From Candidatus Omnitrophota bacterium (GTDB lineage: Bacteria; Omnitrophota; Gorgyraeia; 1-14-0-20-64-10): 64,000 nt of DNA. The position numbers and the translations under genes were made by a program. The DNA is taken from contig JAMWCF010000001.1 of the NCBI GenBank assembly GCA_023818695.1, forward strand, positions 595,306-659,305, given 5' to 3'. Every line of letters starts with the position of its first letter. Positions within the stretch are counted from its first letter, which is position 1. The notes beneath the pieces were generated by a model. It saw nothing but the letters and a program-made list of their open reading frames with translations. It had not been told where the DNA came from and ran no database searches. Positions 3,237 to 38,318 of this stretch are shown one piece after another.

Positions 3237-4966
3237 TACACGTACCCCAGTTCATGAAGGTAAACCAGCATATCCCGGACCAGAAGAGCCGCTTCCGCGC
3301 CGCCCCGGCCCCCGTGCTCCAAAAAGACGACGAAAGACACTTTCGGATCTCGCGGCGGGGAATAACCGGCAAACCACGCATGGCTCTGCCCTTTCCCGGA
3401 TTGAGCCGTCCCGGTCTTGCCGGCGGCCGGAATGCCGGGCAGTTGGGCCAAACGGCCCGTTCCGCTGTCGGAGCTGACGACCCGTTCCATCCCGGCCTTC
3501 ACCCGCTCCAGAACCTCTTTCTTGAACTCAAGCTGGCGGACCTCATACGCTTTCCCTTTTCGCTCTCCTTCAATCTCAAGCACCAGGTGCGGCTGTGGAA
3601 TCCGTCCCTCCATCGCGATCGCGGTGAAAAGCTGGAGGATTTGAATCGGCGTGGCCGTCAAAGCGCTTTGCCCGATGGCAAAGGAGAGGGTGTCCCCTTC
3701 CTGCCAGGGCTGCTGATGGGCTGTTTTCATCCAGGAGGGATTGGGGATAAAACCGATGCCCTCCCTGGGCAAGTCGATCTTGGTCTTTTGACCGAAACCG
3801 AACGACTCGGCTGCGTGACCGATTCCCTCCGGTCCCAGCCGGCGGCCGGTATTGTAGAAAAAGACATTGCAGGAGTGCTCAAGGGCGCGGATCACATCCT
3901 GCGGACCGTGCCCGGGATCCCACCAACAACGGAAGACGGACCTGCCGAGTTTGAACTCTCCGCCGCATTCAAAATGCGTCCCTCCCGTGATCTTCCCTTC
4001 CTGAAGTGCTTCGGAGGCAACAGCCACCTTGAAGGTGGAACCCGGAGGGACGGCGGACCGGATCGCCCGATTGAACATGGGCCTCTCCCTGGAGCGCAGG
4101 TAATTCCGAACCTCCTGCCGGCGGCTGAAATCCAGAAAAGCGTTTGGATCGAAAGTGGGGGCGCTGACGAGAGCCAGAATCTCGCCGCTGCGGGGCTCCA
4201 TAATGATGATGGCCCCCTTCTGCTCCGCCAGGAGCTGATGACAGAACTGCTGCAGCCGACCATCCAGAGAAACCCGGACCTGCCGTCCCCTCTGCGGAGG
4301 CAGGTATCCCATTTGACGGACCATGCGCCCGCGGTGATCCACCTCCACCTGCAGACCGCCGGAGTGCCCGCGCAAATACGGGTCGTACATCTGCTCTAAA
4401 CCGTCCTTGCCGACATAATCGCGGATCGTGTAACCGTACGGCTTCAGGCGGGTCAGCTCTTTTTCGGAAATCAACCCCAGATACCCCATCACCGGTCCAA
4501 GCGAAGCCCCCAGCAGGTAGCGGCGCTTCGGAATAGGCCGGACCAGCGTCCCGGGCAATTCACTCTTTTTCTCTTCGAGAAGAAACGCGGTGGCGGGTGG
4601 AAGATTGTGCACCAGCGTCACGGGAGCGAAAGGGGCCTGGTAGCCCCGCCGGTACGCCCTCGCCAGCTCTTCAGTGGAACGCTCGACAATGGGAGCCAGC
4701 TGCCGCCACAGGAGGGAGGGGCTGTCGACCTCCTGCGGAAAAACGGCGAGTTCAAAACTCATCTGGTCTTCAACCAGTGGGATCCCGTGCCGGTCCACGA
4801 CCGCCCCGCGCGAGGCCGGCAAAGGGACCAGCCGGATCCGGTTTTTGTCGGCTTTCTGCCGGTAGTAAGCCCCCTCCACAACCTGGTGGTGCAGCAACCC
4901 CACCCAGAGAAGGAGGAGGGCGGACATAATCACACGCTGCAGGAAAAGAAGGCGCATTCCAATCAT
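3236..4966 (-). CDS. mrdA: Penicillin-binding protein 2 (elongasome transpeptidase)
   Basis: N-terminal TM anchor plus the transpeptidase motifs STFK (GSTFKV), SCN (EHSCNVFF) and KTGTA. It is located between mreD and rodA. Confidence 0.9.
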   Translation of the reverse strand: MIGMRLLFLQRVIMSALLLLWVGLLHHQVVEGAYYRQKADKNRIRLVPLPASRGAVVDRHGIPLVEDQMSFELAVFPQEVDSPSLLWRQLAPIVERSTEELARAYRRGYQAPFAPVTLVHNLPPATAFLLEEKKSELPGTLVRPIPKRRYLLGASLGPVMGYLGLISEKELTRLKPYGYTIRDYVGKDGLEQMYDPYLRGHSGGLQVEVDHRGRMVRQMGYLPPQRGRQVRVSLDGRLQQFCHQLLAEQKGAIIIMEPRSGEILALVSAPTFDPNAFLDFSRRQEVRNYLRSRERPMFNRAIRSAVPPGSTFKVAVASEALQEGKITGGTHFECGGEFKLGRSVFRCWWDPGHGPQDVIRALEHSCNVFFYNTGRRLGPEGIGHAAESFGFGQKTKIDLPREGIGFIPNPSWMKTAHQQPWQEGDTLSFAIGQSALTATPIQILQLFTAIAMEGRIPQPHLVLEIEGERKGKAYEVRQLEFKKEVLERVKAGMERVVSSDSGTGRLAQLPGIPAAGKTGTAQSGKGQSHAWFAGYSPPRDPKVSFVVFLEHGGRGGAEAALLVRDMLVYLHELGYV

Positions 4967-25712: not shown

Positions 25713-26516
25713 TCACGAACCCGTTTCAAAACGGTGTGGCCACACTTCACTCATGATGCCGTCCACCCCGCAAGCGGCCAGCTGTTCGATCTGCCGGGCC
25801 GTCCTGGCCGTCCAGGCATAGGCCTTCAGACCTTTCGCGTGAATCCGCTTGACCGAGCGGGGGTTGATCCACTTCCGGTAAACAACCAGCCCGTCAATTC
25901 CGAGCCGCCGCGCCGTCCATAGCCGCCGCTTTGTGACGGCGGCACTGTAGCCGGTGACCCAAAAAAGCGGGTGACGGCCCTGATCAGACTGCCGCCACCG
26001 CTTCAGGGCCCTCACAACGGAGAAACCGGCATAAAGAGGCCGGTTTCCTCTTTCCCTTTGGAAAAACCGGACGAGCTCCTCCTGCCCCTGATCGGCCTTG
26101 ACATCCAGGAATAGGCCGACGCCCCTGTCCCGGCAAAAATCCCACACCTGCTCCAAGCGCGGGATCCTTTCTCCGAGAAAGCGGGGAGAAAACCACCCGC
26201 CCGCCTCTAAGCGGCGGATCTCGTCCCACGTCATCGTTTTGATCCGCCTCTTTAACCCGACTGTCCTCTTCAAAGTGGGGTCATGCAGGGCGACCCACAC
26301 ACCGTCTTTCGTCCGGCGCAGATCAATTTCTACAAAAACGGCCCCTTTTTCAACCGCCTGCCGGACGGAAACCAGCGTGTTTTCCGGGGCGTGAGCCGGA
26401 TCTCCCCGGTGCGCGATCAGAATGACCTTCTTTTTCACCCGCCCATCATACCACAAGAGGTCATGGAGCCTGATGCGCGGCACTTTAGCACCACTGAACC
26501 TTGACATTTGGCACAA
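25713..26516 (-). CDS. Glycerophosphodiester phosphodiesterase family protein (start uncertain)
   Basis: ILIAHRGDPAHAPENTLVSVRQAVEKGAVFVEIDLRRTKDGVWVALHD is the GDPD signature. The track start (TTG at 26516) sits inside the rpoN promoter, so the GTG at 26438 (VKKKVILIAHRG) is a plausible true start. Confidence 0.85.
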   Translation of the reverse strand: MCQMSRFSGAKVPRIRLHDLLWYDGRVKKKVILIAHRGDPAHAPENTLVSVRQAVEKGAVFVEIDLRRTKDGVWVALHDPTLKRTVGLKRRIKTMTWDEIRRLEAGGWFSPRFLGERIPRLEQVWDFCRDRGVGLFLDVKADQGQEELVRFFQRERGNRPLYAGFSVVRALKRWRQSDQGRHPLFWVTGYSAAVTKRRLWTARRLGIDGLVVYRKWINPRSVKRIHAKGLKAYAWTARTARQIEQLAACGVDGIMSEVWPHRFETGS

Positions 26517-26529
26517 AACTTGCTATACT
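26501..26529 (+). promoter_or_regulatory. rpoN promoter: sigma-70 TTGACA-17-TATACT with a nested consensus sigma-54 element TGGCAC-N5-TTGC
   Basis: Read directly: TTGACA at 26501-26506, TATACT at 26524-26529, TGGCAC at 26509-26514 and TTGC at 26520-26523. The GG-to-GC spacing matches the -24/-12 consensus. The element ends 27 nt before the rpoN ATG. Confidence 0.6.
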
Positions 26530-26556
26530 CTATTTACCATCGTTGGCTCCCCGACC

Positions 26557-27975
26557 ATGGATATATCAACCCAACAGAAACAACAGCAATCACTTACACT
26601 CACTCCAAGTCTCCGCTTGGCCTTGGAAGTTCTCCGAATACCCCTGGCCGAACTGGAGATGTACCTCCAGCAGCAGCTTGAAGAGAATCCCCTGCTTGAA
26701 AAGACTGAAGACCCCTCCGAGCTGGAAGGGGCCCCCGAGATAGAACCCCTCCATGATTCGACAGTCGCCTCCGATGACGACCCGGCGGATGACTTTGAAA
26801 CAAACATTTCGGAACTCTGGCAGGAGAACGACGGTTTTAACCCCTCTCAACAGGAGGAGCCGTTCGCTCCCAGCGTCGTCAGCAAAAGCTTGCCGCTTCA
26901 CGACTACCTCCTGCACCAGCTCTATAGCCAACAGCTCGATGGACAAACAAAGCGGGCCGCCGAAATCCTTCTCAACTGGCTTGACCCGGACGGCTACCTT
27001 TACAGCCCTCTGGAGGAGATCTCGCAATCAGAGGAAATACCGGTGTGCGACCTTGAAAAGGGGCTGGCGGTGATCCAGCGGTTTGAGCCGGCCGGGGTGG
27101 GCGCTCGCTCTCTGACGGAATGTCTGCTGATTCAGTTGGCCCATCGCGGAGATGGAAACGGGCTGGCAGCCCAGATCATCTGGGACCATTTTGACCTGCT
27201 GGTGAAGCAGAAGTGGCATCAGCTGGCTTCCAAGCTTCGGATTCACATCGACGCTCTGCAGGAAGCGGTCCAGACCATCGCCCGGCTTGATCCGAAACCA
27301 GCCCGGAATTTTTCAGGGGAGGTTTCCCTGCCGGTCACCCCCGATCTGATCATGCGGCAGGCCAAGGACGGCTATGAGGTGGAGGTCAACGATGAATCCC
27401 TTCCGAAGCTTATCTTGAGCTCCACCTACCGCCAGATGCTGCGATCTCCCAGCTCCTCTTTCGAAACCAAAACGTTTATCCGGGAAAAAATGCGGCAGGG
27501 CTCTTGGCTCATTAAAGCGATCGAACAGAGGAAACAGACCCTCCTGTCGATCGCCCGGTGCGTCGTGCAGCTGCAGAAGGATTACTTCACCCAGGGAATC
27601 CAGTTTCTGCGGGCGTTGACCCAGGAGGAGATCTCCAAAATGGTGGGTTGCCACCCCTCCACCATCAGCCGGGCCATCGCCGGCAAGACGATCCAGACCC
27701 CTTACGGCGTCGTTCCGCTCGAAACGTTTTTCGGCGGGGGCATTTCCTTGCCGGAACAGGACGGCAAGAAGCTGCCCTCCAGAACAATTCAGGCGGAGAT
27801 CGAAAATCTGATCGCCCGGGAAAATCCGGAGAAGCCGTTGAGCGACCATGCCCTGGCGCTGATACTGCGCGAGAAGGGGTATCCGGTCGCCAGGCGGACC
27901 GTCGCGAAGTACCGGACCCAGCTGAAAATCCTGCCGGCCCATTTCCGCCACAAGCTCGTCAGCCGTTCCGCGTAA
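26557..27975 (+). CDS. rpoN: RNA polymerase sigma-54 factor
   Basis: The start at the ATG at 26557 gives region I (MDISTQQKQQQSLTLTPSLRLALEVLRIPLAELE...ENPLLE). The core-binding region, the HTH and the RpoN box ARRTVAKYR are all present. Confidence 0.95.
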   Translation: MDISTQQKQQQSLTLTPSLRLALEVLRIPLAELEMYLQQQLEENPLLEKTEDPSELEGAPEIEPLHDSTVASDDDPADDFETNISELWQENDGFNPSQQEEPFAPSVVSKSLPLHDYLLHQLYSQQLDGQTKRAAEILLNWLDPDGYLYSPLEEISQSEEIPVCDLEKGLAVIQRFEPAGVGARSLTECLLIQLAHRGDGNGLAAQIIWDHFDLLVKQKWHQLASKLRIHIDALQEAVQTIARLDPKPARNFSGEVSLPVTPDLIMRQAKDGYEVEVNDESLPKLILSSTYRQMLRSPSSSFETKTFIREKMRQGSWLIKAIEQRKQTLLSIARCVVQLQKDYFTQGIQFLRALTQEEISKMVGCHPSTISRAIAGKTIQTPYGVVPLETFFGGGISLPEQDGKKLPSRTIQAEIENLIARENPEKPLSDHALALILREKGYPVARRTVAKYRTQLKILPAHFRHKLVSRSA

Positions 27976-28060: not shown

Positions 28061-29107
28061 TTAAGAACTGGATGCTTCGCTGGGAATGATGTGCGATACG
28101 GACAGGGCGGTCTGCGCCAAACCGATCAGCTTGCGCAGCAGCTCAACGTCCTCCACAGAGAAGGAGGTGGCCTCCCTCGTGCTTCTCAAGTTCAGAACGC
28201 CGACCAGGTGATCGCCGGAGCCGTGGGAGAAGGGGGCCACTAGAGAAGAGGTCAGCTCGGGCCGCCTCATCCGGCTGGAGATCTGCGGATCGGTTTCCTG
28301 GCGGCCGACGAGAAGGATCTCTTTCCTTTCCAAAGCCAATCCCGCCATGCTCCCGAAGGAGGAGAAAGCCCCAACCCGGACTACCTCCTCCGGCAGCCCG
28401 GAGGCCGCCGCGATCCGGAACATCCTCTTTTTATCATCGTAGAGGAGGATCGACCCACCCTCCGCGTGCGTCGCCGCGCAGGCGACATCGAGGAAAGCAT
28501 TCCAGAGGCGTCCTCCGTAATGCTTTAGGATCACCTGGTCCACCTGCCCGAAAGGAAGGATCCCCTTGAGCTGGTTGGCCTGGTAGGCCATCTCCAGCAG
28601 GGAGTTGCCCATCTCCTCCAGCATGGAGAGGACCGCCTTGAAGGTGGTGTAGGTGTACGCCTTGAGGGTCAACAGGAGCTCCCAGACCGGCGCGGGATCC
28701 ACACCCATCTGGACCGCTCTCTGCCGGAACGACTCCGCGCTTTCCCTCGGACCCAGAACAACGGGACCGATCACCAGGTATCCCACGATCCAATTTGCCG
28801 AGGCCCGCAGGGGGATGGCAGCAAATGAAAAACCGAGGGGCCTGGTGGTGGCGGTGGTCATCTGCGGGAGGATTTCAGCGGAGGGAAACAGTTCCTCCAT
28901 CTCATCGCCGATTTGCAGAAGTTCGACCATCCGGGAAGCGTCTATCCCGGCTGGCCAGGAGGGATCGACGAGATGCATTTTGGAAACCGACAGAGTCCGA
29001 ATCCCCACCCCCAGAACCCGTGAGAAATGGGACTGCAGCCGATGCCAGCGGTCGGGCGGGATCAGCTCCAAAAGTTCGGGCCGACGCTCCTGCTCGTATG
29101 AGGTCAT
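28061..29107 (-). CDS. Sensor protein with PocR-like N-terminal domain and C-terminal GAF domain, no output domain
   Basis: 348 aa. The N-terminal half resembles PocR-type ligand-binding domains (FAAIPLRASANWIVGYLVIGPVVL). The C-terminal half is GAF-like (GGSILLYDDKKRMFRIAAASGLP...LVAPFSHGSGDHLVGVLNL). It is the third gene of the kinase/activator operon. Confidence 0.7.
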   Translation of the reverse strand: MTSYEQERRPELLELIPPDRWHRLQSHFSRVLGVGIRTLSVSKMHLVDPSWPAGIDASRMVELLQIGDEMEELFPSAEILPQMTTATTRPLGFSFAAIPLRASANWIVGYLVIGPVVLGPRESAESFRQRAVQMGVDPAPVWELLLTLKAYTYTTFKAVLSMLEEMGNSLLEMAYQANQLKGILPFGQVDQVILKHYGGRLWNAFLDVACAATHAEGGSILLYDDKKRMFRIAAASGLPEEVVRVGAFSSFGSMAGLALERKEILLVGRQETDPQISSRMRRPELTSSLVAPFSHGSGDHLVGVLNLRSTREATSFSVEDVELLRKLIGLAQTALSVSHIIPSEASSS

Positions 29108-29136: not shown

Positions 29137-30528
29137 TTAAAAATTCGACCGGAGACGGTCTGGGTCAATCGAAAACCGCTTCAGTTTGTGGTACAAAGTC
29201 GCCCGGTGAATGCCCAGCCTTTTGGCGGCAAGAGACCGGTTGTAGCCGCATTCCTTCAAGACCTTCATGATGATCTCCCGCTCCGGGTCCCGAAGTGCCT
29301 CCTTCAGGGTGGACGGGTCATCGCCATTTTCGGCCTGCGGCGCCGGCTCCTGTGACAGATGGGGAGGCTCCCCCCGCCGGATCGTGTCCGGCAGGTCCTC
29401 CACATCGACAAAGGTTTTTTGATTCATGACGATCGCCCGCTCGATGGCGTTTTCCAGCTCGCGGACATTGCCCGGCCAGGGATACCGCCTCAAGAGATCC
29501 AAAGCGGCTGGCGTCACGCTGTCCATCGTTCTTCCCATCTGGGTGGAAATCTTTTTGAGGAAATGCTCCACGAGGATGGGAACGTCGCTGGCCCTCTCCC
29601 GCAAGGGGGGAATGTGGAGTGAAATAACGTTGAGACGGTGATAAAGGTCTTCCCTGAATTTCCCTTCCTTTACAAAGGCATCCAGATTCCGGTTGGTCGC
29701 CGCAATGATCCGGACATCGACCCGGATGGTCCTGTTGTCTCCCACCCGCTCAAATGTCCGGTCCTGAATGACCCGCAGGACTTTGACCTGCATGGCCGGC
29801 GAAAAGGTATCAACCTCATCCAGCAGAATGGTCCCGCCGTCCGCGACCTCGAAACGGCCCTCCTTGTCCCGGATGGCGCCGGTGAAAGATCCCCGGACGT
29901 GACCGAAAAGCTCGCTTTCCAAAAGGGTCTCCGGCAGAGCCCCGCAGCTGACTTCCACAAACGGGTTCTTGCATCTCTTCGGGTCGGCCCGGTGGATCGC
30001 GTGGGCGATCACTCTTTTGCCGGTCCCGCTTTCGCCCCTTAACAGAACGGTGGCCGGACTTTGGGCGATGAGCGTGATCTTTCTGCGGAGATCCTCCATG
30101 GAAGCGTGGTGTCCGACGATCGCGGAGAACGGGTCGGCGGCCGCCGGCTCGTCGTAGGAGGTGGTCGTCGCCAGCGCCCGCTGAACCGTGGCCTCGAGCT
30201 GTTCCGTCTGAATCGGCTTTGTCAGGAAATCGAAGGCGCCGTTGCGGAACGCCCCGACCGCCGTGTCCAGATTGCCGAAGCCGGTGATCAAAACAACGTT
30301 GATATCAGGATACCTGTTTTTGATGTGCTCCAGCAGGCTCAGGCCGTCCACCTGCGGCATCTTCAGGTCGGTCAGAACCAGCTGAAACTTGCCTCCCTTA
30401 AGCTGCTCCATCGCTTCGGTCCCGTCCGAGGCGACCTCGACGTTGAAGCGCATCTCCTTAAGCTGCTCATAGAGAGAACCCCGGATCAGCGGGTCATCAT
30501 CGACGACAAGGATGCGGTTTCTTTCCAT
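29137..30528 (-). CDS. Sigma-54-dependent response regulator (NtrC family; PrsR-like by context)
   Basis: REC domain (ILVVDDDP...LVLTDLKMP) and AAA+ domain with Walker A GESGTGK. The sigma-54 contact loop is the GSFTGA variant of GAFTGA. A C-terminal Fis-type HTH is present (LAAKRLGIHRATLYHKLKRF). The start is taken at the ATG at 30528. Confidence 0.93.
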   Translation of the reverse strand: MERNRILVVDDDPLIRGSLYEQLKEMRFNVEVASDGTEAMEQLKGGKFQLVLTDLKMPQVDGLSLLEHIKNRYPDINVVLITGFGNLDTAVGAFRNGAFDFLTKPIQTEQLEATVQRALATTTSYDEPAAADPFSAIVGHHASMEDLRRKITLIAQSPATVLLRGESGTGKRVIAHAIHRADPKRCKNPFVEVSCGALPETLLESELFGHVRGSFTGAIRDKEGRFEVADGGTILLDEVDTFSPAMQVKVLRVIQDRTFERVGDNRTIRVDVRIIAATNRNLDAFVKEGKFREDLYHRLNVISLHIPPLRERASDVPILVEHFLKKISTQMGRTMDSVTPAALDLLRRYPWPGNVRELENAIERAIVMNQKTFVDVEDLPDTIRRGEPPHLSQEPAPQAENGDDPSTLKEALRDPEREIIMKVLKECGYNRSLAAKRLGIHRATLYHKLKRFSIDPDRLRSNF

Positions 30529-30532
30529 TGGA

Positions 30533-31699
30533 TCAATCCCCCTTCTCTTCCTGCCCCGCCGTGGGGACATGAATCCGGAATGTGGTCCCAATGCCCGTTT
30601 GACTTGTAAAATCGATGCTGCCGCCGGAGCGCTCCACGGCCTCCTTGGCGATGATCAGCCCCAGACCGTTTCCCTGGTGAGGCGGCTTTGTGGAAAAGAA
30701 CGGTTCGAAAAGGCGGGACCGCACCTCCTCCGGGATGCCGCAACCGGTGTCCTGAATGAGCACATCTACGTGGGCGTTTTCGCAGCGGGTCGCCACCGTG
30801 AGCGTGCCGCCGGTGGGCATGGCGTCGAAGGAATTTTTGATCAGGTTCATCACGGCGTGCTGCAAACCGGCATCCATCACCGGCGGCAGTTTTTCCTGGA
30901 AGTCCTTGATCACCTCCACCTGCTGAAACTTGCTGCGGTGACGGAACAGCAGCAACGCGTCTTCGATCAGACGGTTGAGGTCGGCCAGACGACCGGTCGT
31001 TGAGGAGGTTTGGCGGGCGATTTCAAGGAAGGCGGTCGCCGCCCGGACCATCCGGTCAAGCCCCTCCTTCACATGAAGAATGTACTCTCTTTCGGGAGCA
31101 TCCTCCGGCATCTTCTCCAGAGCCAGGTGCGTATACCGGAGAACCCCGTCCAGGGGGTTGTTCAGCTCATGGGCGATCCCTCGGGCGATCTTGCCGATCG
31201 AGGCCCGGTACTCGGTTTGGCGCAGCTGTTTCTTGAGACGGACCATCTCGGAAATATCACACAGCGAGATCACCAGGGTCTGCCGGCCGATCTCATCCTC
31301 CGGCGTTGCCCGGACGCAGAACCGGACCCATTTTTCCTTCTCGATGTTGAGATCGAACTCCACCAGGTCTTCGGCGGGAGGGCTGGTGATGAGGCAGGAA
31401 AAGCTCTTGGCGAACTCGGTGTTCTTAAAGAAGGGCATCGCCTCAAAGAGGGTCTGCTGGGCGACCTGGTCCTTCTCCAGGCCAAGGAGCTTCAGGGCGG
31501 CCGGATTCACCGCGCAGATGATCGCCTTCTGGTCGACCACAAGACAGCCGCACGGGAACGTATCGACGATCTGCTCCCAGGTCTTTACGTCGTTGACAGT
31601 TATGCCGTCGATTTCCATGGAAGAAAGGCCGTGAAGGGCGTCGTCCTTTTTCGACACACGGGAAACCTCTTTTCTAATACTTTTGACGAACGGTGTCAA
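30533..31699 (-). CDS. Soluble PAS-domain sensor histidine kinase
   Basis: No TM segments. It has a PAS-like N-terminal region, the HisKA H-box IAHELNNPL and HATPase_c blocks (NLIKNSFDAM, DTGCGIP, GNGLGL). The start is TTG at 31699, preceded by AAGGAG. Confidence 0.9.
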   Translation of the reverse strand: MTPFVKSIRKEVSRVSKKDDALHGLSSMEIDGITVNDVKTWEQIVDTFPCGCLVVDQKAIICAVNPAALKLLGLEKDQVAQQTLFEAMPFFKNTEFAKSFSCLITSPPAEDLVEFDLNIEKEKWVRFCVRATPEDEIGRQTLVISLCDISEMVRLKKQLRQTEYRASIGKIARGIAHELNNPLDGVLRYTHLALEKMPEDAPEREYILHVKEGLDRMVRAATAFLEIARQTSSTTGRLADLNRLIEDALLLFRHRSKFQQVEVIKDFQEKLPPVMDAGLQHAVMNLIKNSFDAMPTGGTLTVATRCENAHVDVLIQDTGCGIPEEVRSRLFEPFFSTKPPHQGNGLGLIIAKEAVERSGGSIDFTSQTGIGTTFRIHVPTAGQEEKGD

Positions 31700-31739: not shown

Positions 31740-31768
31740 AGTATAGTCACGCCAAGGGGTAAAATCAA
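31740..31768 (-). promoter_or_regulatory. Candidate sigma-70 promoter TTGATT-17-TATACT for the kinase/activator/GAF operon
   Basis: The minus strand reads TTGATT (31768-31763), a 17-nt spacer, then TATACT (31745-31740). The -10 hexamer ends 40 nt upstream of the TTG start. Confidence 0.45.
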
Positions 31769-31805: not shown

Positions 31806-32429
31806 TCAACTGACGATCTGAAGCTGTGCAAGCGCTGCTAAAAAGCGGTTGAGACGATCCTGGCTCTTGATCGGATCTTCCCTGGACGTGGAGATCCTCA
31901 CCAGCGTCCCGTACATCGATCTGCCTTTCAGGAGGTCGGAAAAAAGCCACCATTGCTGCTGATAATAATTCGGAGTCACACGCCCGTTGGCCGTGAACCA
32001 GTACCAGGTTTCATACTCTTTCCCCTCCTGGGCGATGACCAACCGCATCAGCCGCTGCCGGCGCCCTCCCAGCTCTACGGTCATCGGACCCCGCTGCCTG
32101 ATTTCAAAGTCGGCCCCCGCGAAACAGATCTCCGGAGGATGGAAAGCAGCCCTGTTTTTGCCGAACCCGCCGACCCGGGCGAACAGAACGGCCGGCTCCT
32201 CCGGTACAGCGTACTCGACCAGAGTCACATCTTTGGTCTCCAGTATTTCGTAGGTCCTGGCATCCACGCCGACAGGGGTCCCCTTCCATTCGCCGATCGA
32301 TTCCGGCAGGGGGGAAGCGGCAACCACCTGCCCTTGGCTGTTCGCGTTATTGGCGGCCCACACGAGGCCAGCCGCCGACACCATGACCAGGAAAGCTATC
32401 GGTGAAGGACGAAAGAGGGCAGAGACCAT
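31806..32429 (-). CDS. epsI: EpsI-family exosortase-associated protein
   Basis: The internal ATG at 32429 gives 207 aa with an N-terminal TM helix. EWKG...HPPEICFAGADFE and WYWF blocks are typical of EpsI. It lies immediately downstream of the exosortase. Confidence 0.75.
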   Translation of the reverse strand: MVSALFRPSPIAFLVMVSAAGLVWAANNANSQGQVVAASPLPESIGEWKGTPVGVDARTYEILETKDVTLVEYAVPEEPAVLFARVGGFGKNRAAFHPPEICFAGADFEIRQRGPMTVELGGRRQRLMRLVIAQEGKEYETWYWFTANGRVTPNYYQQQWWLFSDLLKGRSMYGTLVRISTSREDPIKSQDRLNRFLAALAQLQIVS

Positions 32430-33268
32430 TTTTCCATCGCCTTGCTCAACCAGGCCAAAGCCGCCAAAGCCACGCCGAACACTACGAACCCGGAACCGTA
32501 ATGAATGAAACTCTCGGCAATGTATGGGCCGTAAATCGCCGAGAGAAGAACCAGCGCGATAATCCGGATCATGTTGGCCCCCAACGCAATCGGGATGGAA
32601 GCCACCACGATCGCCGCCTTTTTCCAGCGCTGGGAACCGGCCGGCAGAAGGGCCGTCCACAGCGTGGAGAGGGCGATCAGGCTGATCAAGGACCGCAGGC
32701 CACTGCAGGTGTCATCCACGATAACCGAGACTCCCGGGACATGGAGCATGGAGCCAGCTTGGGCCACCGGAATGCCCATCATCCGGATCACGCCGGCCGC
32801 CATCGAGGCAGCCAGGATCTTCATCCGGAAGCTCAAAGCGATCAGCGTGACGCCAGGCAAAGGAACCATGAAAAGGAGAAACAGCAATGGGAACCGCAAT
32901 TCCCACAGCATCCGGCGACCGCAGAGGACCCATACCAGCCCATACAGGGCCGCCAGCATCGCGAAGCCGGAAACCACGCCGATCGAAAGCAGCGTGGCGG
33001 CCAGGTGCACCACCACCGCGGGCACCAGCAGGAACAGACCCGCGAAACTGGGAGCACGCGGAATGTTTTTCAACTGTTCACGCCGGCGCCATACCAGCCA
33101 GATGCTGGCGAAGGGGATCAGCCACCCGTGGGAATAGAAGGAATCGGCCGACTCGAAACGCTCGGCCATCCACAGGAAGGTGGGCCAAAAAAGGAAGAGG
33201 AACAGGCCGGCCCACAACGGCCAGACGATGAAACGGCCCGGTGCTGTGGTCCCGCCAAGGAAGCTCAT
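32396..33268 (-). CDS. Exosortase (EpsH/Xrt family transpeptidase)
   Basis: 290-aa polytopic protein with the exosortase catalytic block DDTCSGLRSLISL and conserved Arg/His context. An ATGA overlap links it to the upstream TPR gene. Confidence 0.88.
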   Translation of the reverse strand: MSFLGGTTAPGRFIVWPLWAGLFLFLFWPTFLWMAERFESADSFYSHGWLIPFASIWLVWRRREQLKNIPRAPSFAGLFLLVPAVVVHLAATLLSIGVVSGFAMLAALYGLVWVLCGRRMLWELRFPLLFLLFMVPLPGVTLIALSFRMKILAASMAAGVIRMMGIPVAQAGSMLHVPGVSVIVDDTCSGLRSLISLIALSTLWTALLPAGSQRWKKAAIVVASIPIALGANMIRIIALVLLSAIYGPYIAESFIHYGSGFVVFGVALAALAWLSKAMEKWSLPSFVLHR

Positions 33269-35744: not shown

Positions 35745-36428
35745 TTACTTCCGGCAAAACCGGCGAAAGCCGGCAGCCGCCATGCCGAAGCCGAGCAACA
35801 GCATGGAACCCGGTTCCGGGATCACTCCGATGAAGCCCTGGTCCGGAATGAAATCATCGGGTTCAAAACCTCTGTTATCCAGTTTGGCAAAACCCTGCGC
35901 TCCGGGGAATGGGGCCAGGTACAACGGCAGGAAGGTCGCAGGCGCGTAAACCTCGATCACCGATCCCAACGCGCCGGCGCCACCACCGACAATGGCGCCG
36001 CTTCCATCCCGGATAACCACCGTGCCCAAACCACCCTCATTGAAATTAATGATCCGGTCATCGGTGCTCGTCAAGGCACTGTCCCCGTCAAAATCGATGG
36101 CGAAGACAAAAAGCGACTCCTCACCCGGCAAAGAGCCAGGCCCGCCGGCAAAGGTCGGTGGAGCGTAGGTGGTCATCAGGAAATAGAGCCCGTCGTCGCT
36201 CGGGTCTCCACCGAACTCATCCTCCACCCTTAACGAGGAGATGTCCCACGGATCGCTGATATTCAGCAACGGGTTGACATTGAATTCGTTGGGATCGCCC
36301 GCCGCGATGATGAAGGAATCCCATTCCGTTCCCGTAATCACGCCATCCACGACCGGCACAGCGGAGGCGGTGCCCGCGAAGGCAACCAATCCCATCGCTA
36401 ACGCCGAAAACAGTACAAACTTTTTCAT
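35745..36428 (-). CDS. PEP-CTERM domain secreted protein (227 aa)
   Basis: Signal peptide MKKFVLFSALAMGLVAFAGTASA and C-terminus IPEPGSMLLLGFGMAAAGFRRFCRK. Confidence 0.85.
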   Translation of the reverse strand: MKKFVLFSALAMGLVAFAGTASAVPVVDGVITGTEWDSFIIAAGDPNEFNVNPLLNISDPWDISSLRVEDEFGGDPSDDGLYFLMTTYAPPTFAGGPGSLPGEESLFVFAIDFDGDSALTSTDDRIINFNEGGLGTVVIRDGSGAIVGGGAGALGSVIEVYAPATFLPLYLAPFPGAQGFAKLDNRGFEPDDFIPDQGFIGVIPEPGSMLLLGFGMAAAGFRRFCRK

Positions 36429-36472: not shown

Positions 36473-37216
36473 TCAACGAAGCCCAACACCCTTGCCGGTC
36501 ACCATCACCAGGAAAGTGGCCGCCAAAATCCGGACATCCAGCATCAAGCACATCCGCTTGATATAAAGAACGTCAAACCGGAGCTTCCTTTTCACATCCG
36601 CGAGGGTCCTGTCATACCGATAATAGACCTGGGCCAAACCGGTCATTCCCGGCTTGACATACAGCCGGTAGCCGTAACCCGGAATCTCTTTGTTGAGCTG
36701 GTCTACAAAACAGGGTCGCTCCGGCCGGGGCCCCACGAGGCTCATCTCCCCTTTCCAGACATTGATCAGCTGTGGCAGCTCGTCCAGGTGGGTCACCCTC
36801 AAAAATCTCCCCACCGGCGTCACCCGGGGATCTTCCGCCGAATGGCGCGCCCACACCGGCCCGGTCGCCGCTTCCGCGTCATGCACCATGGAGCGGAATT
36901 TGAACATGTTGAAGAGATCGCCTGACCGCCCCACCCGCTCCTGGGTGTAGAAGACCGGCCCTCTCGAAGTCAGCTTGATCGCCGCAGCGATCAGCAGCAT
37001 CACGGGCGCGAAAGCGACAATCAGCAGAGTGGAACCGACGAAATCGACCACCCGTTTGAGGGCTAATCGCCACCAGTACCTGGAGTTCAAAATCACATCC
37101 GGGTAGTTGAGGGCAAGGAAGGAACCAATCCGATCTACCGTCTCCTTGCGGATTACGTTCCACCGGGTCATCAACCCCTGCTGTCTATTCACCCATCGAG
37201 CGACTAAGACTGTCAT
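36473..37216 (-). CDS. Polyprenyl-phosphate sugar phosphotransferase (bacterial sugar transferase, priming enzyme)
   Basis: One TM helix plus the PVFYTQERVGRSGDLFNMFKFRSM, DELPQL, GEMSLVGPRP and GMTGLAQV blocks. Confidence 0.9.
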   Translation of the reverse strand: MTVLVARWVNRQQGLMTRWNVIRKETVDRIGSFLALNYPDVILNSRYWWRLALKRVVDFVGSTLLIVAFAPVMLLIAAAIKLTSRGPVFYTQERVGRSGDLFNMFKFRSMVHDAEAATGPVWARHSAEDPRVTPVGRFLRVTHLDELPQLINVWKGEMSLVGPRPERPCFVDQLNKEIPGYGYRLYVKPGMTGLAQVYYRYDRTLADVKRKLRFDVLYIKRMCLMLDVRILAATFLVMVTGKGVGLR

Positions 37217-37268: not shown

Positions 37269-37286
37269 AAGCAGGAACTATGCCAG
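37269..37286 (-). promoter_or_regulatory. Sigma-54 (-24/-12) promoter of the sugar-transferase / PEP-CTERM-227 unit
   Basis: The minus strand reads CTGGCATAGTTCCTGCTT with consensus GG/GC spacing. The element ends 52 nt upstream of the ATG at 37216. Confidence 0.6.
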
Positions 37287-37467: not shown

Positions 37468-38253
37468 TTAAGCTCTTGTCTTCTTGCGAGAGCGGAAACC
37501 CAGGAGGCCTAAACCAGCGCCCAAGAGAGCCAACGAAGCCGGCTCTGGAATAACACCATTCCCTCCACCGCCTGTGCCGCGGAAGCCCCACTCTTCAAAA
37601 GATCCCTGGTTCGGGTCGTTCTCGCCAAATCTGGAATAAAGATAAACGTACTGGCTCGTCGGCCCGGTGAACAAACTGTTCGGAACGTAAAGGAACATGT
37701 CCTTCTGCCCCTGACCAGCTCCGATAGAAGCATCCAACCGGACGTAGCTGTTCTCGCCGGCGTCCATCCGGTAAATCAGGGTTCCGGAAATATCGATCAA
37801 CCCGCCGGTGAAGGTTTCCACCGACTGGTTTGGCGTGATCGAAAGGAAAATTTGGACTTCATCCAGCGACAGGAAACGCTGGGCCCCACCTGGCTCACCT
37901 ATATCGAGTGAGAATTCCCTGTAATCGGTCCCATCAACATTGATGACGGGAATCTGGGAGATCGTGATCTCATGGTTATGCTGATCGCTGGCCTTGTTGT
38001 CCAAGACGTTATCGACCGTCGTGTTGTAGGCCTGCTCAATGGCGCTGTCGTTACCGGTACGGTCGATCTGGACAAAAGCGGGAAAAGTGCCTGTCCCGGT
38101 GCCGGTCTGGATATCCCGGCTGTAAAGGGCCCCGTTGATGATCCCTTCCGTGGTACCTCCGGTCAGGTCCAGAACCACCGCCTCGGCCGGCGACGCCGCC
38201 AGGCCGAAACCGATCAACACCGCAATAATCCCTGTTTTTATGAGTTCCTTCAT
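37468..38253 (-). CDS. PEP-CTERM domain secreted protein (261 aa)
   Basis: Signal peptide ending SPAEA and C-terminus IPEPASLALLGAGLGLLGFRSRKKTRA. Confidence 0.85.
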   Translation of the reverse strand: MKELIKTGIIAVLIGFGLAASPAEAVVLDLTGGTTEGIINGALYSRDIQTGTGTGTFPAFVQIDRTGNDSAIEQAYNTTVDNVLDNKASDQHNHEITISQIPVINVDGTDYREFSLDIGEPGGAQRFLSLDEVQIFLSITPNQSVETFTGGLIDISGTLIYRMDAGENSYVRLDASIGAGQGQKDMFLYVPNSLFTGPTSQYVYLYSRFGENDPNQGSFEEWGFRGTGGGGNGVIPEPASLALLGAGLGLLGFRSRKKTRA

Positions 38254-38300: not shown

Positions 38301-38318
38301 AAGCAGGTTCCATGCCAA
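38301..38318 (-). promoter_or_regulatory. Sigma-54 (-24/-12) promoter of the 261-aa PEP-CTERM gene
   Basis: The minus strand reads TTGGCATGGAACCTGCTT with consensus GG/GC spacing. The element ends 47 nt upstream of the ATG at 38253. Confidence 0.6.

Follow-up and report, generated by a model that had tools for sequence, protein, structure and literature searches.

The RNA polymerase holoenzyme containing sigma-54 binds its promoters tightly and stays silent until it is activated by an ATPase, and when bound in the inactive state it is in effect a repressor. Here, we consider a 29-bp element in which a sigma-54 site lies within the spacer of a sigma-70 promoter just ahead of rpoN, the gene for sigma-54 itself, in a Candidatus Omnitrophota bacterium (GCA_023818695.1, JAMWCF010000001.1, 595,306–659,305, forward strand; this stretch of 64,000 nucleotides (nt) is the window throughout, coordinates below are window positions, and labels of the form L### or P#### denote sequences of relatives or from collections that were compared with it). 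The closest described systems are the overlapping sigma-54/sigma-70 promoters of glmY in Escherichia coli and Salmonella and of glmZ in Salmonella (Reichenbach et al. 2009; PMC3045617). A single start site serves both holoenzymes at glmY. When the activator GlrR is absent, the sigma-70 promoter is repressed by the sigma-54 holoenzyme, and in Salmonella this repression is almost complete; three GlrR sites along with IHF sites lie upstream, and the genes of the activator system adjoin the promoter (PMC3045617).

Sigma-54 also represses where its site overlaps another promoter, according to Zafar et al. 2014 as cited in PMC4591121, and in Yersinia mutations of RpoN sites have both positive and negative effects (PMC7657599). 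These cases share with the element considered here the silent closed complex as a repressor; they concern other genes, none of them autoregulatory, and clade-wide conservation is not part of the reports. Autoregulation of rpoN forms a separate strand: the earlier note's statement that it can be negative in rhizobia is borne out for R. etli (rpoN1) and R. leguminosarum by the summaries in PMC3916325 and PMC3538637. There, the logic is that of the occlusion model developed below, with sigma-54 lowering the expression of its own gene; the rhizobial effect was established genetically, whereas here it is inferred, and the lineages are unrelated. The rpoN2 gene of B. japonicum is reportedly under negative autoregulation too, as attributed to Kullik et al. 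in 1991. On a broader scale, a computational survey of 2025 found sigma-54 motifs over-represented ahead of rpoN in Verrucomicrobiia, Planctomycetia, Bacilli, Clostridia and Proteobacteria, "implying autoregulation" (PMC12316311; a search of its text for "Omnitroph" gave no mention), and the sigma-54 regulons reported for Geobacter and Dokdonia include rpoN. In Geobacter, RpoN overexpression inhibits growth (PMC2725144); tight control of the protein is therefore likely to be valuable. Overlapping sigma-54/sigma-70 promoters, repression by a silent holoenzyme and rpoN autoregulation are, then, already known; what is new is the overlapping design on rpoN itself, its conservation in an uncultivated phylum, across a deep clade, and the doubling of the −12 element as an extended −10.

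A sigma-54 site in the spacer of the rpoN promoter

Direct inspection of the sequence at 26501–26529 confirms the earlier note's claim of a nested double consensus, with 27 nt between the end of the element (26529) and the rpoN ATG (26557), and a second, independent assembly (Logan SRR27730036, L179) agrees with the window at every base from 26380 to 26600. The TTGACA and TATACT hexamers of the sigma-70 promoter are separated by a 17-nt spacer (26507–26523), in which the bases tt are followed by TGGCAC, aaaac (26515–26519) and TTGC, such that TGGCACaaaacTTGCt matches the sigma-54 −24/−12 consensus TGGCAC-N5-TTGC(W) at 10/10 positions, W being T. The GG and GC of the sigma-54 box are spaced by exactly 10 nt, an arrangement (GG-N10-GC) found in all eight carriers of the block described below; the box stands in the correct orientation a short distance 5' of rpoN, and the TG of its −12 element (26521–26522) doubles as the TGn of an extended sigma-70 −10.

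The sigma-54 box and the sigma-70 hexamer pair each have just one exact match in the 64-kilobase (kb) window, and in a generic promoter scan the sole 11/12 sigma-70 promoter between 20 and 33 kb was the nested site, flagged for its TG before the −10. Given the base composition, chance alone would supply 0.13 sigma-54 boxes, 0.002 sigma-70 hexamer pairs and 2e-9 copies of the nested 22-base pattern per window. Sigma-54 boxes with one mismatch occur in the window at chance level (3 observed vs 3.85 expected), and the significance of the site therefore derives from its position, nesting and conservation rather than from the box by itself.

By standard motif-to-start distances the two holoenzymes are predicted to begin transcription 1 nt apart, sigma-54 at about 26535 (12 nt past the C of the GC) and sigma-70 at about 26536 (7 nt past the −10); the spacing seen at glmY, where the annotated 5' end lies 13 nt past the −12 C, would likewise put the start at 26536. 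The predicted rpoN leader has 21 nt and is without an obvious Shine-Dalgarno sequence. Rfam and tRNA scans of the window returned no matches.

A base-level comparison with the E. coli glmY promoter (TGGCAC-agtta-CTGC-ATAAT) brings out both a common layout and several differences. In both, the −24/−12 elements sit within a sigma-70 promoter, the −10 hexamer adjoins the −12 GC, the starts coincide (here by prediction) and a sigma-54 activator two-component system is encoded nearby, here in at least five carriers. However, glmY shares the C of its GC with the −10 hexamer (CATAAT), whereas the −10 considered here begins one base after the GC, the layout being otherwise the same. The sigma-70 part is also far stronger, with TTGACA and TGn as against a glmY −35 read as TTTCTT at the 17-nt position. 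Unlike glmY, with its GlrR and IHF sites, this promoter has no such sites detectable upstream in a crude search, and while glmY encodes a small RNA of Enterobacteriaceae, the target in the Omnitrophota is the sigma-54 gene, which closes a feedback loop.

Conservation at rpoN and comparison with other sites

Relatives were sampled via the RpoN protein, and hence blind to the motif, giving 11 loci of the clade; the alignment was anchored on the sigma-54 core, such that the fair question is whether a given upstream region contains the core at all. The same block stands before rpoN in seven further Omnitrophota genomes (Table 1) whose RpoN proteins are 48–60% identical to that of the window, a positive answer to the question of conservation that the earlier note had raised. 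The TGGCA, the TGC and the TA of the −10, i.e., the sigma-54 core and the start of the −10, are invariant in 8/8. Mean pairwise identity is 0.90 in TGGCAY and 0.81 in NTGC, with 0.62 in the −35 hexamer, 0.63 in N5 and 0.70 in the −10 hexamer, and is just 0.25 and 0.31 in the 40 nt flanking the block upstream and downstream, respectively. The distance from motif to ATG varies from 15 to 40 nt among carriers. With about 4e-5 occurrences expected per random 125 nt, the 10-base core pattern is present at 8/11 clade loci and at 1/78 distant rpoN loci. The combination of an invariant core with randomised flanks thus means that the block is not a product of chance, and it excludes phylogenetic inertia. 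These patterns suggest selection on the sigma-54 core, for the invariance of which sigma-70 function alone does not account, and they support the earlier proposal of a direct action of sigma-54 on the promoter of its own gene. The sigma-70 part is retained as well, at the TTG of the −35 and at the TA, A2 and T6 of the −10 (counts in Table 2); relatives have one to three mismatches in the −35 and one or two in the −10, with the −35 down to 3/6 in L086, L087 and L137, and the perfect double consensus is found in the window genome only.

Table 1. The block upstream of rpoN in the window and in seven related Omnitrophota genomes
Locus	RpoN identity	−35	Gap	−24	N5	−12	−10
Window	reference	TTGACA	tt	TGGCAC	aaaac	TTGC	TATACT
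L081	60%	TTGACG	at	TGGCAC	aaaat	TTGC	TATACT
L084	59%	TTGACG	at	TGGCAC	gaaat	TTGC	TATACT
L085	53%	TTGACG	at	TGGCAC	gcgaa	ATGC	TAGACT
L137	51%	TGTACC	gt	TGGCAT	agaat	ATGC	TAGAAT
L086	50%	TTGTGC	ac	TGGCAT	ggaat	GTGC	TAAACT
L087	49%	TTGCGC	at	TGGCAT	gaaat	ATGC	TAAAAC
L139	48%	TTGAGA	ct	TGGCAT	gaaat	GTGC	TATCGT

The block persists even where the gene neighbourhood has changed: GH3 lies upstream in L085 and L137, TatC in L086, and in L139 a tRNA-like sequence precedes it while PilZ/FeeM genes follow downstream. The carriers are spread over the entire clade in a rough neighbour-joining tree, and the three non-carriers (L088, L089 and L138) fall together in a single nested subclade. There, rpoN heads or lies within an operon that continues with genes for a 4HB_MCP histidine kinase and a sigma-54 activator, an alternative coupling of rpoN to an activator system. 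The nested block is absent from the distant Omnitrophota L001, L037 and L043. On the simplest reading of these sequences, the nested element would be ancestral in the clade and would have been lost once. As regards the transcript, the −10 ends 9 nt before the rpoN ATG in L086 (2980–3000) and 8 nt before it in L139 (2985–3000), and the rpoN mRNA of these two is therefore expected to be leaderless or nearly so.

Beyond the clade, a background set was drawn from a genome-collection scan with the RpoN alignment, a scan saturated by universal RpoN-box peptides, and consists of distant loci at 32–40% identity. A sigma-54 box of at least 8/10 occurs within 200 nt upstream of rpoN at 18/78 of these loci vs 4/78 in-gene controls of the same size, and a box of 9/10 at eight of the 78 vs none of the controls. 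Most box-bearing loci belong to Verrucomicrobiota, which reproduces in our own sample what the 2025 survey reported, namely a −24/−12 box directly 5' of rpoN in members of the Planctomycetes-Verrucomicrobia-Chlamydiae (PVC) group, as in the Omnitrophota block. At none of these distant loci do sigma-70 hexamers surround the box in the nested register, however, and the survey reads its boxes as promoters that transcribe rpoN. Thus, the sigma-54 box at rpoN is a PVC-wide theme, whereas only this clade of Omnitrophota has it embedded within a sigma-70 promoter. The plain boxes of Verrucomicrobiota (L008, L015, L016, L020, L049, L057, L064 and L067) mostly lie about 35–65 nt from rpoN (178 nt in L057) and are often followed by a second TTGC, e.g., TGGCGCgattaTTGCTTGCG.

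The nested pattern is not confined to rpoN. In metagenome contigs (L090–L136), the strict form has 47 matches in about 28 families, none of them upstream of or near rpoN; the genes 3' of the matches are miscellaneous (Lon, ClpB, RadC, a pseudopilin and many phage-like proteins), and close relatives are evidently missing from the collection. The pattern alone is therefore not diagnostic; what argues for function is that it is conserved at rpoN. The earlier note had called so perfect a nested double consensus striking; the consensus is perfect in the window, but the hexamers of relatives carry mismatches, glmY provides a precedent and the pattern recurs at unrelated genes.

Proposed feedback on rpoN and its alternatives

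Taken together, the anatomy and conservation of the promoter suggest, and we consider it somewhat more probable than the contrary, that rpoN is under negative feedback by promoter occlusion, the dual-occupancy promoter acting as a sigma-54 homeostat. The sigma-70 holoenzyme would transcribe rpoN from the strong nested promoter, and as sigma-54 accumulates its own holoenzyme would come to occupy the nested site. Without an activator ATPase it would not melt the DNA and would persist as a stable closed complex, which, the two footprints coinciding, would exclude the sigma-70 holoenzyme and lower rpoN transcription. The outcome would be a negative feedback holding sigma-54 at a set level, with a conditional boost by an activator possible on top of it. 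A near-perfect, very strong sigma-70 promoter whose spacer carries a perfect, operator-like sigma-54 site fits the role of a promoter held in check by its own product; the sigma-70 promoter is, moreover, the sole good one in the intergenic region and would therefore be needed to start sigma-54 synthesis.

The same layout could also be wired as at glmY, with basal expression from sigma-70, while the neighbouring kinase and activator (30533–31699 and 29137–30591) would, on a specific signal, switch on the nested sigma-54 promoter at the shared start, such that rpoN is boosted when its regulon is needed, e.g., for the nearby PEP-CTERM and exopolysaccharide (EPS) genes, and occlusion holds only while the activator is off. 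We regard this as possible if on balance unlikely. An activator two-component system is encoded beside the dual promoter of glmY (PMC3045617), and a PAS kinase and an NtrC/AtoC-type activator likewise adjoin rpoN in five or more carrier genomes (six if P0004, the promoter DNA of which is not readable, is included); the rpoN-kinase-activator operon of the motif-less subclade speaks for a persistent functional link, and 10 kb from rpoN there are candidate sigma-54 promoters for a PEP-CTERM protein and an EPS glycosyltransferase. On the other hand, a crude search of the upstream 250 nt in seven taxa found neither an inverted repeat nor a k-mer that was shared beyond the level of shuffled controls, i.e., no conserved activator-binding repeat, and the repeats 5' of the two PEP-CTERM/EPS sigma-54 promoters have, by eye, no counterpart near rpoN. 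L081 and L084 have in common both the 29-nt core promoter and a 70-nt block at the GDPD start, but what lies between these two elements is unrelated in sequence and length; L085 and L137 leave merely about 20–120 nt between the promoter and the upstream gene; and L139 retains the block without an adjacent activator system. Because no conserved enhancer was found and L139 lacks neighbouring activator genes, the sign of the feedback tilts towards occlusion rather than activator-dependent amplification, short of proof. As a separate observation, the 380-nt GDPD-rpoN spacer of L081 contains short GTTTGC, GTTAnC and CCGnnAAC-like repeats (3780–3850) that are absent from L084 and the window.

Two further explanations dispense with one or the other holoenzyme. 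If the promoter were sigma-54-dependent and positively autoregulated, the hexamers would be incidental AT-rich flanks and synthesis would be bootstrapped by read-through or a weak promoter. Boxes without sigma-70 hexamers are indeed common at rpoN in related phyla, as counted above and in agreement with the enrichment of the 2025 survey (PMC12316311), and the −35 is poor in three of the eight carriers. Yet the window combines an 11/12 sigma-70 match with TGn, the TA, A2 and T6 of the −10 are conserved, and the other candidate sigma-54 promoters of the same genome are without hexamers; rpoN is, furthermore, divergent from its upstream gene, making read-through impossible, and a gene dependent solely on sigma-54 cannot start itself. 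Such a promoter is accordingly rated as scarcely probable. Conversely, sigma-54 might have no role, the site being a plain strong sigma-70 promoter with an operator of some GCA-N9-TGC repressor in its spacer, or a relic of phylogenetic inertia. The partial dyad symmetry of the −24/−12 consensus could serve a dimeric regulator, and the metagenome matches, none near rpoN, show that the pattern arises in other settings. Nevertheless, the variable positions are those left free in the sigma-54 consensus and the invariant ones its core, the downstream gene is rpoN itself, related phyla also have sigma-54 boxes before rpoN, and fully randomised flanks exclude inertia, all of which makes this explanation very unlikely.

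Several points nonetheless weigh against the homeostat. In L086, L087 and L137 the sigma-54 element could be the main promoter, and the plain boxes at Verrucomicrobiota rpoN fit positive sigma-54-dependent transcription across PVC. The kinase and activator adjoin rpoN in carrier genomes just as at glmY, and the enhancer search would miss degenerate, lineage-specific or distant sites. Finally, the organism is uncultivated: anatomy and conservation can be read directly from the genomes, while all mechanistic steps are inferred from them. A wider proposal, that nested promoters are a general and old device using the sigma-54 holoenzyme as a titratable repressor, with the rpoN homeostat dating from the ancestor of the clade and perhaps derived from a plain PVC box, strikes us as distinctly unlikely.

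Gene neighbourhood, further sites and wider meaning

The features of the locus are collected in Table 2. RpoN homologues have 456–473 amino acids (aa) and an invariant RpoN box, ARRTVAKYR; the top matches of the window protein are from Candidatus Omnitrophota, the nearest of them just 60% identical. The host thus encodes an intact RpoN box and at least one activator ATPase, the Sigma54_activat protein at 29137–30591. A longer open reading frame of 517 aa from the ATG at 26422, which would place the motif inside coding sequence, was rejected: the homologues, at the lengths given, align from MDIS, and the random-level identity of the flanks along with the variable distance from motif to ATG also rules it out.

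Table 2. Features of the window around rpoN, with strand and supporting evidence
Feature	Position	Strand	Evidence or remark
Sigma-70 −35 hexamer TTGACA	26501–26506	+	6/6 consensus; TTG kept in 7/8 related promoters
Sigma-54 −24 element TGGCAC	26509–26514	+	GG at 26510–26511; TGGCA invariant in 8/8 related promoters
Sigma-54 −12 element TTGC	26520–26523	+	GC at 26522–26523; TGC invariant in 8/8
Sigma-70 −10 hexamer TATACT	26524–26529	+	5/6 consensus; TA invariant (8/8), A2 8/8, T6 7/8
Predicted shared transcription start	26535–26536	+	standard motif-to-start distances
rpoN (sigma-54), 472 aa	26557–27975	+	Pfam Sigma54_AID/CBD/DBD, E-values 3e-12 to 4e-51
Divergent GDPD gene, revised start GTG 26438, 241 aa	25713–26438	-	Pfam GDPD; lengths in relatives; conserved N-terminus
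PocR/GAF sensor protein	28061–29107	-	convergent rpoN neighbour, conserved in seven genomes
NtrC/AtoC-type sigma-54 activator (response regulator, AAA+, Fis-type helix-turn-helix)	29137–30591	-	domain matches; conserved synteny
PAS histidine kinase, partner of the activator	30533–31699	-	domain matches
Candidate sigma-54 promoter TGGCAT-N5-CTGC	37271–37285	-	55 nt upstream of EPS priming glycosyltransferase (TIGR03025)
Candidate sigma-54 promoter TGGCAT-N5-CTGC	38303–38317	-	50 nt upstream of PepA-like PEP-CTERM protein

The overlap of the promoter with the start of the divergent GDPD gene, to which the earlier note had drawn attention, is real in the automatic annotation (L179), where GDPD begins at the ATG at 26507, within the −35, but it is probably wrong biologically. 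The GDPD proteins of relatives have 223–240 aa, L081 has a stop codon at the position equivalent to the N-terminal extension, and the conserved N-terminus (MKKKVILIAHRG in the window, MEKIFDLIAHRG in L081) places the start at GTG 26438, 62 nt from the −35. The overlap is thus probably an artefact of annotation, and with this start the intergenic region comprises 26439–26556 (118 nt) and wholly contains the promoter. On the minus strand at 26445–26453, 6 nt before the GDPD GTG, stands an extended −10, TGgTATGAT (TGaTATGAT in L081, around 3659–3680), suggestive of a back-to-back divergent promoter giving a near-leaderless GDPD transcript.

On the 5' side of rpoN the minus-strand genes are astD-like, astA, an M20 peptidase and GDPD, while convergent with rpoN are the PocR/GAF protein, the NtrC/AtoC-type activator, the PAS histidine kinase and an EpsI/exosortase-like gene; the order around rpoN is retained in the nearest relatives. 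The PocR/GAF protein, which is without an output domain or an NCBIfam match, is probably encoded at the end of the kinase-activator operon, for which a sigma-70-like promoter is placed at 31768–31740. The activator itself is a candidate for activating the nested promoter, if the latter is also activatable.

The two candidate sigma-54 promoters of the EPS and PEP-CTERM genes, both of them intergenic, suggest that the organism uses canonical −24/−12 promoters; neither has sigma-70 hexamers, which are therefore no general trait of its sigma-54 promoters, and the rpoN site is the sole 10/10 match in the window. The genes listed with these two promoters are at 36473–37216, 37468–38253, 35745–36428 and 31806–32660.

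A parallel might be sought in phages. Viral contigs (L140–L159) were used, along with control sets (L160–L182), to calibrate the register of the nested pattern: the real register occurs in 7–8 families (20 matches), as against two and three families when the −24 element is shifted by 1 nt towards the −35 or the −10, respectively, none when it is shifted by 2 nt in either direction, none with the scrambled −24 TGTGCAY and at most three with TTCGGAY. The sigma-54-compatible register is thus about five-fold over-represented in phage promoters, a modest excess in small numbers, and phage promoters may make use of host sigma-54 occupancy. Several of the metagenome families, and among them the largest, correspond to phage families of this set.

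If the homeostat is real, a sigma-54 site in the spacer of the rpoN promoter would be a very compact gauge that holds the free sigma-54 holoenzyme constant. The finding extends the glmY design from an enterobacterial oddity to another phylum and to a feedback circuit. Although its source organism cannot be grown, the concrete 29-bp element is open to testing in E. coli, and it offers an anchor for defining the sigma-54 promoters and the PEP-CTERM/EPS regulon of the Omnitrophota.

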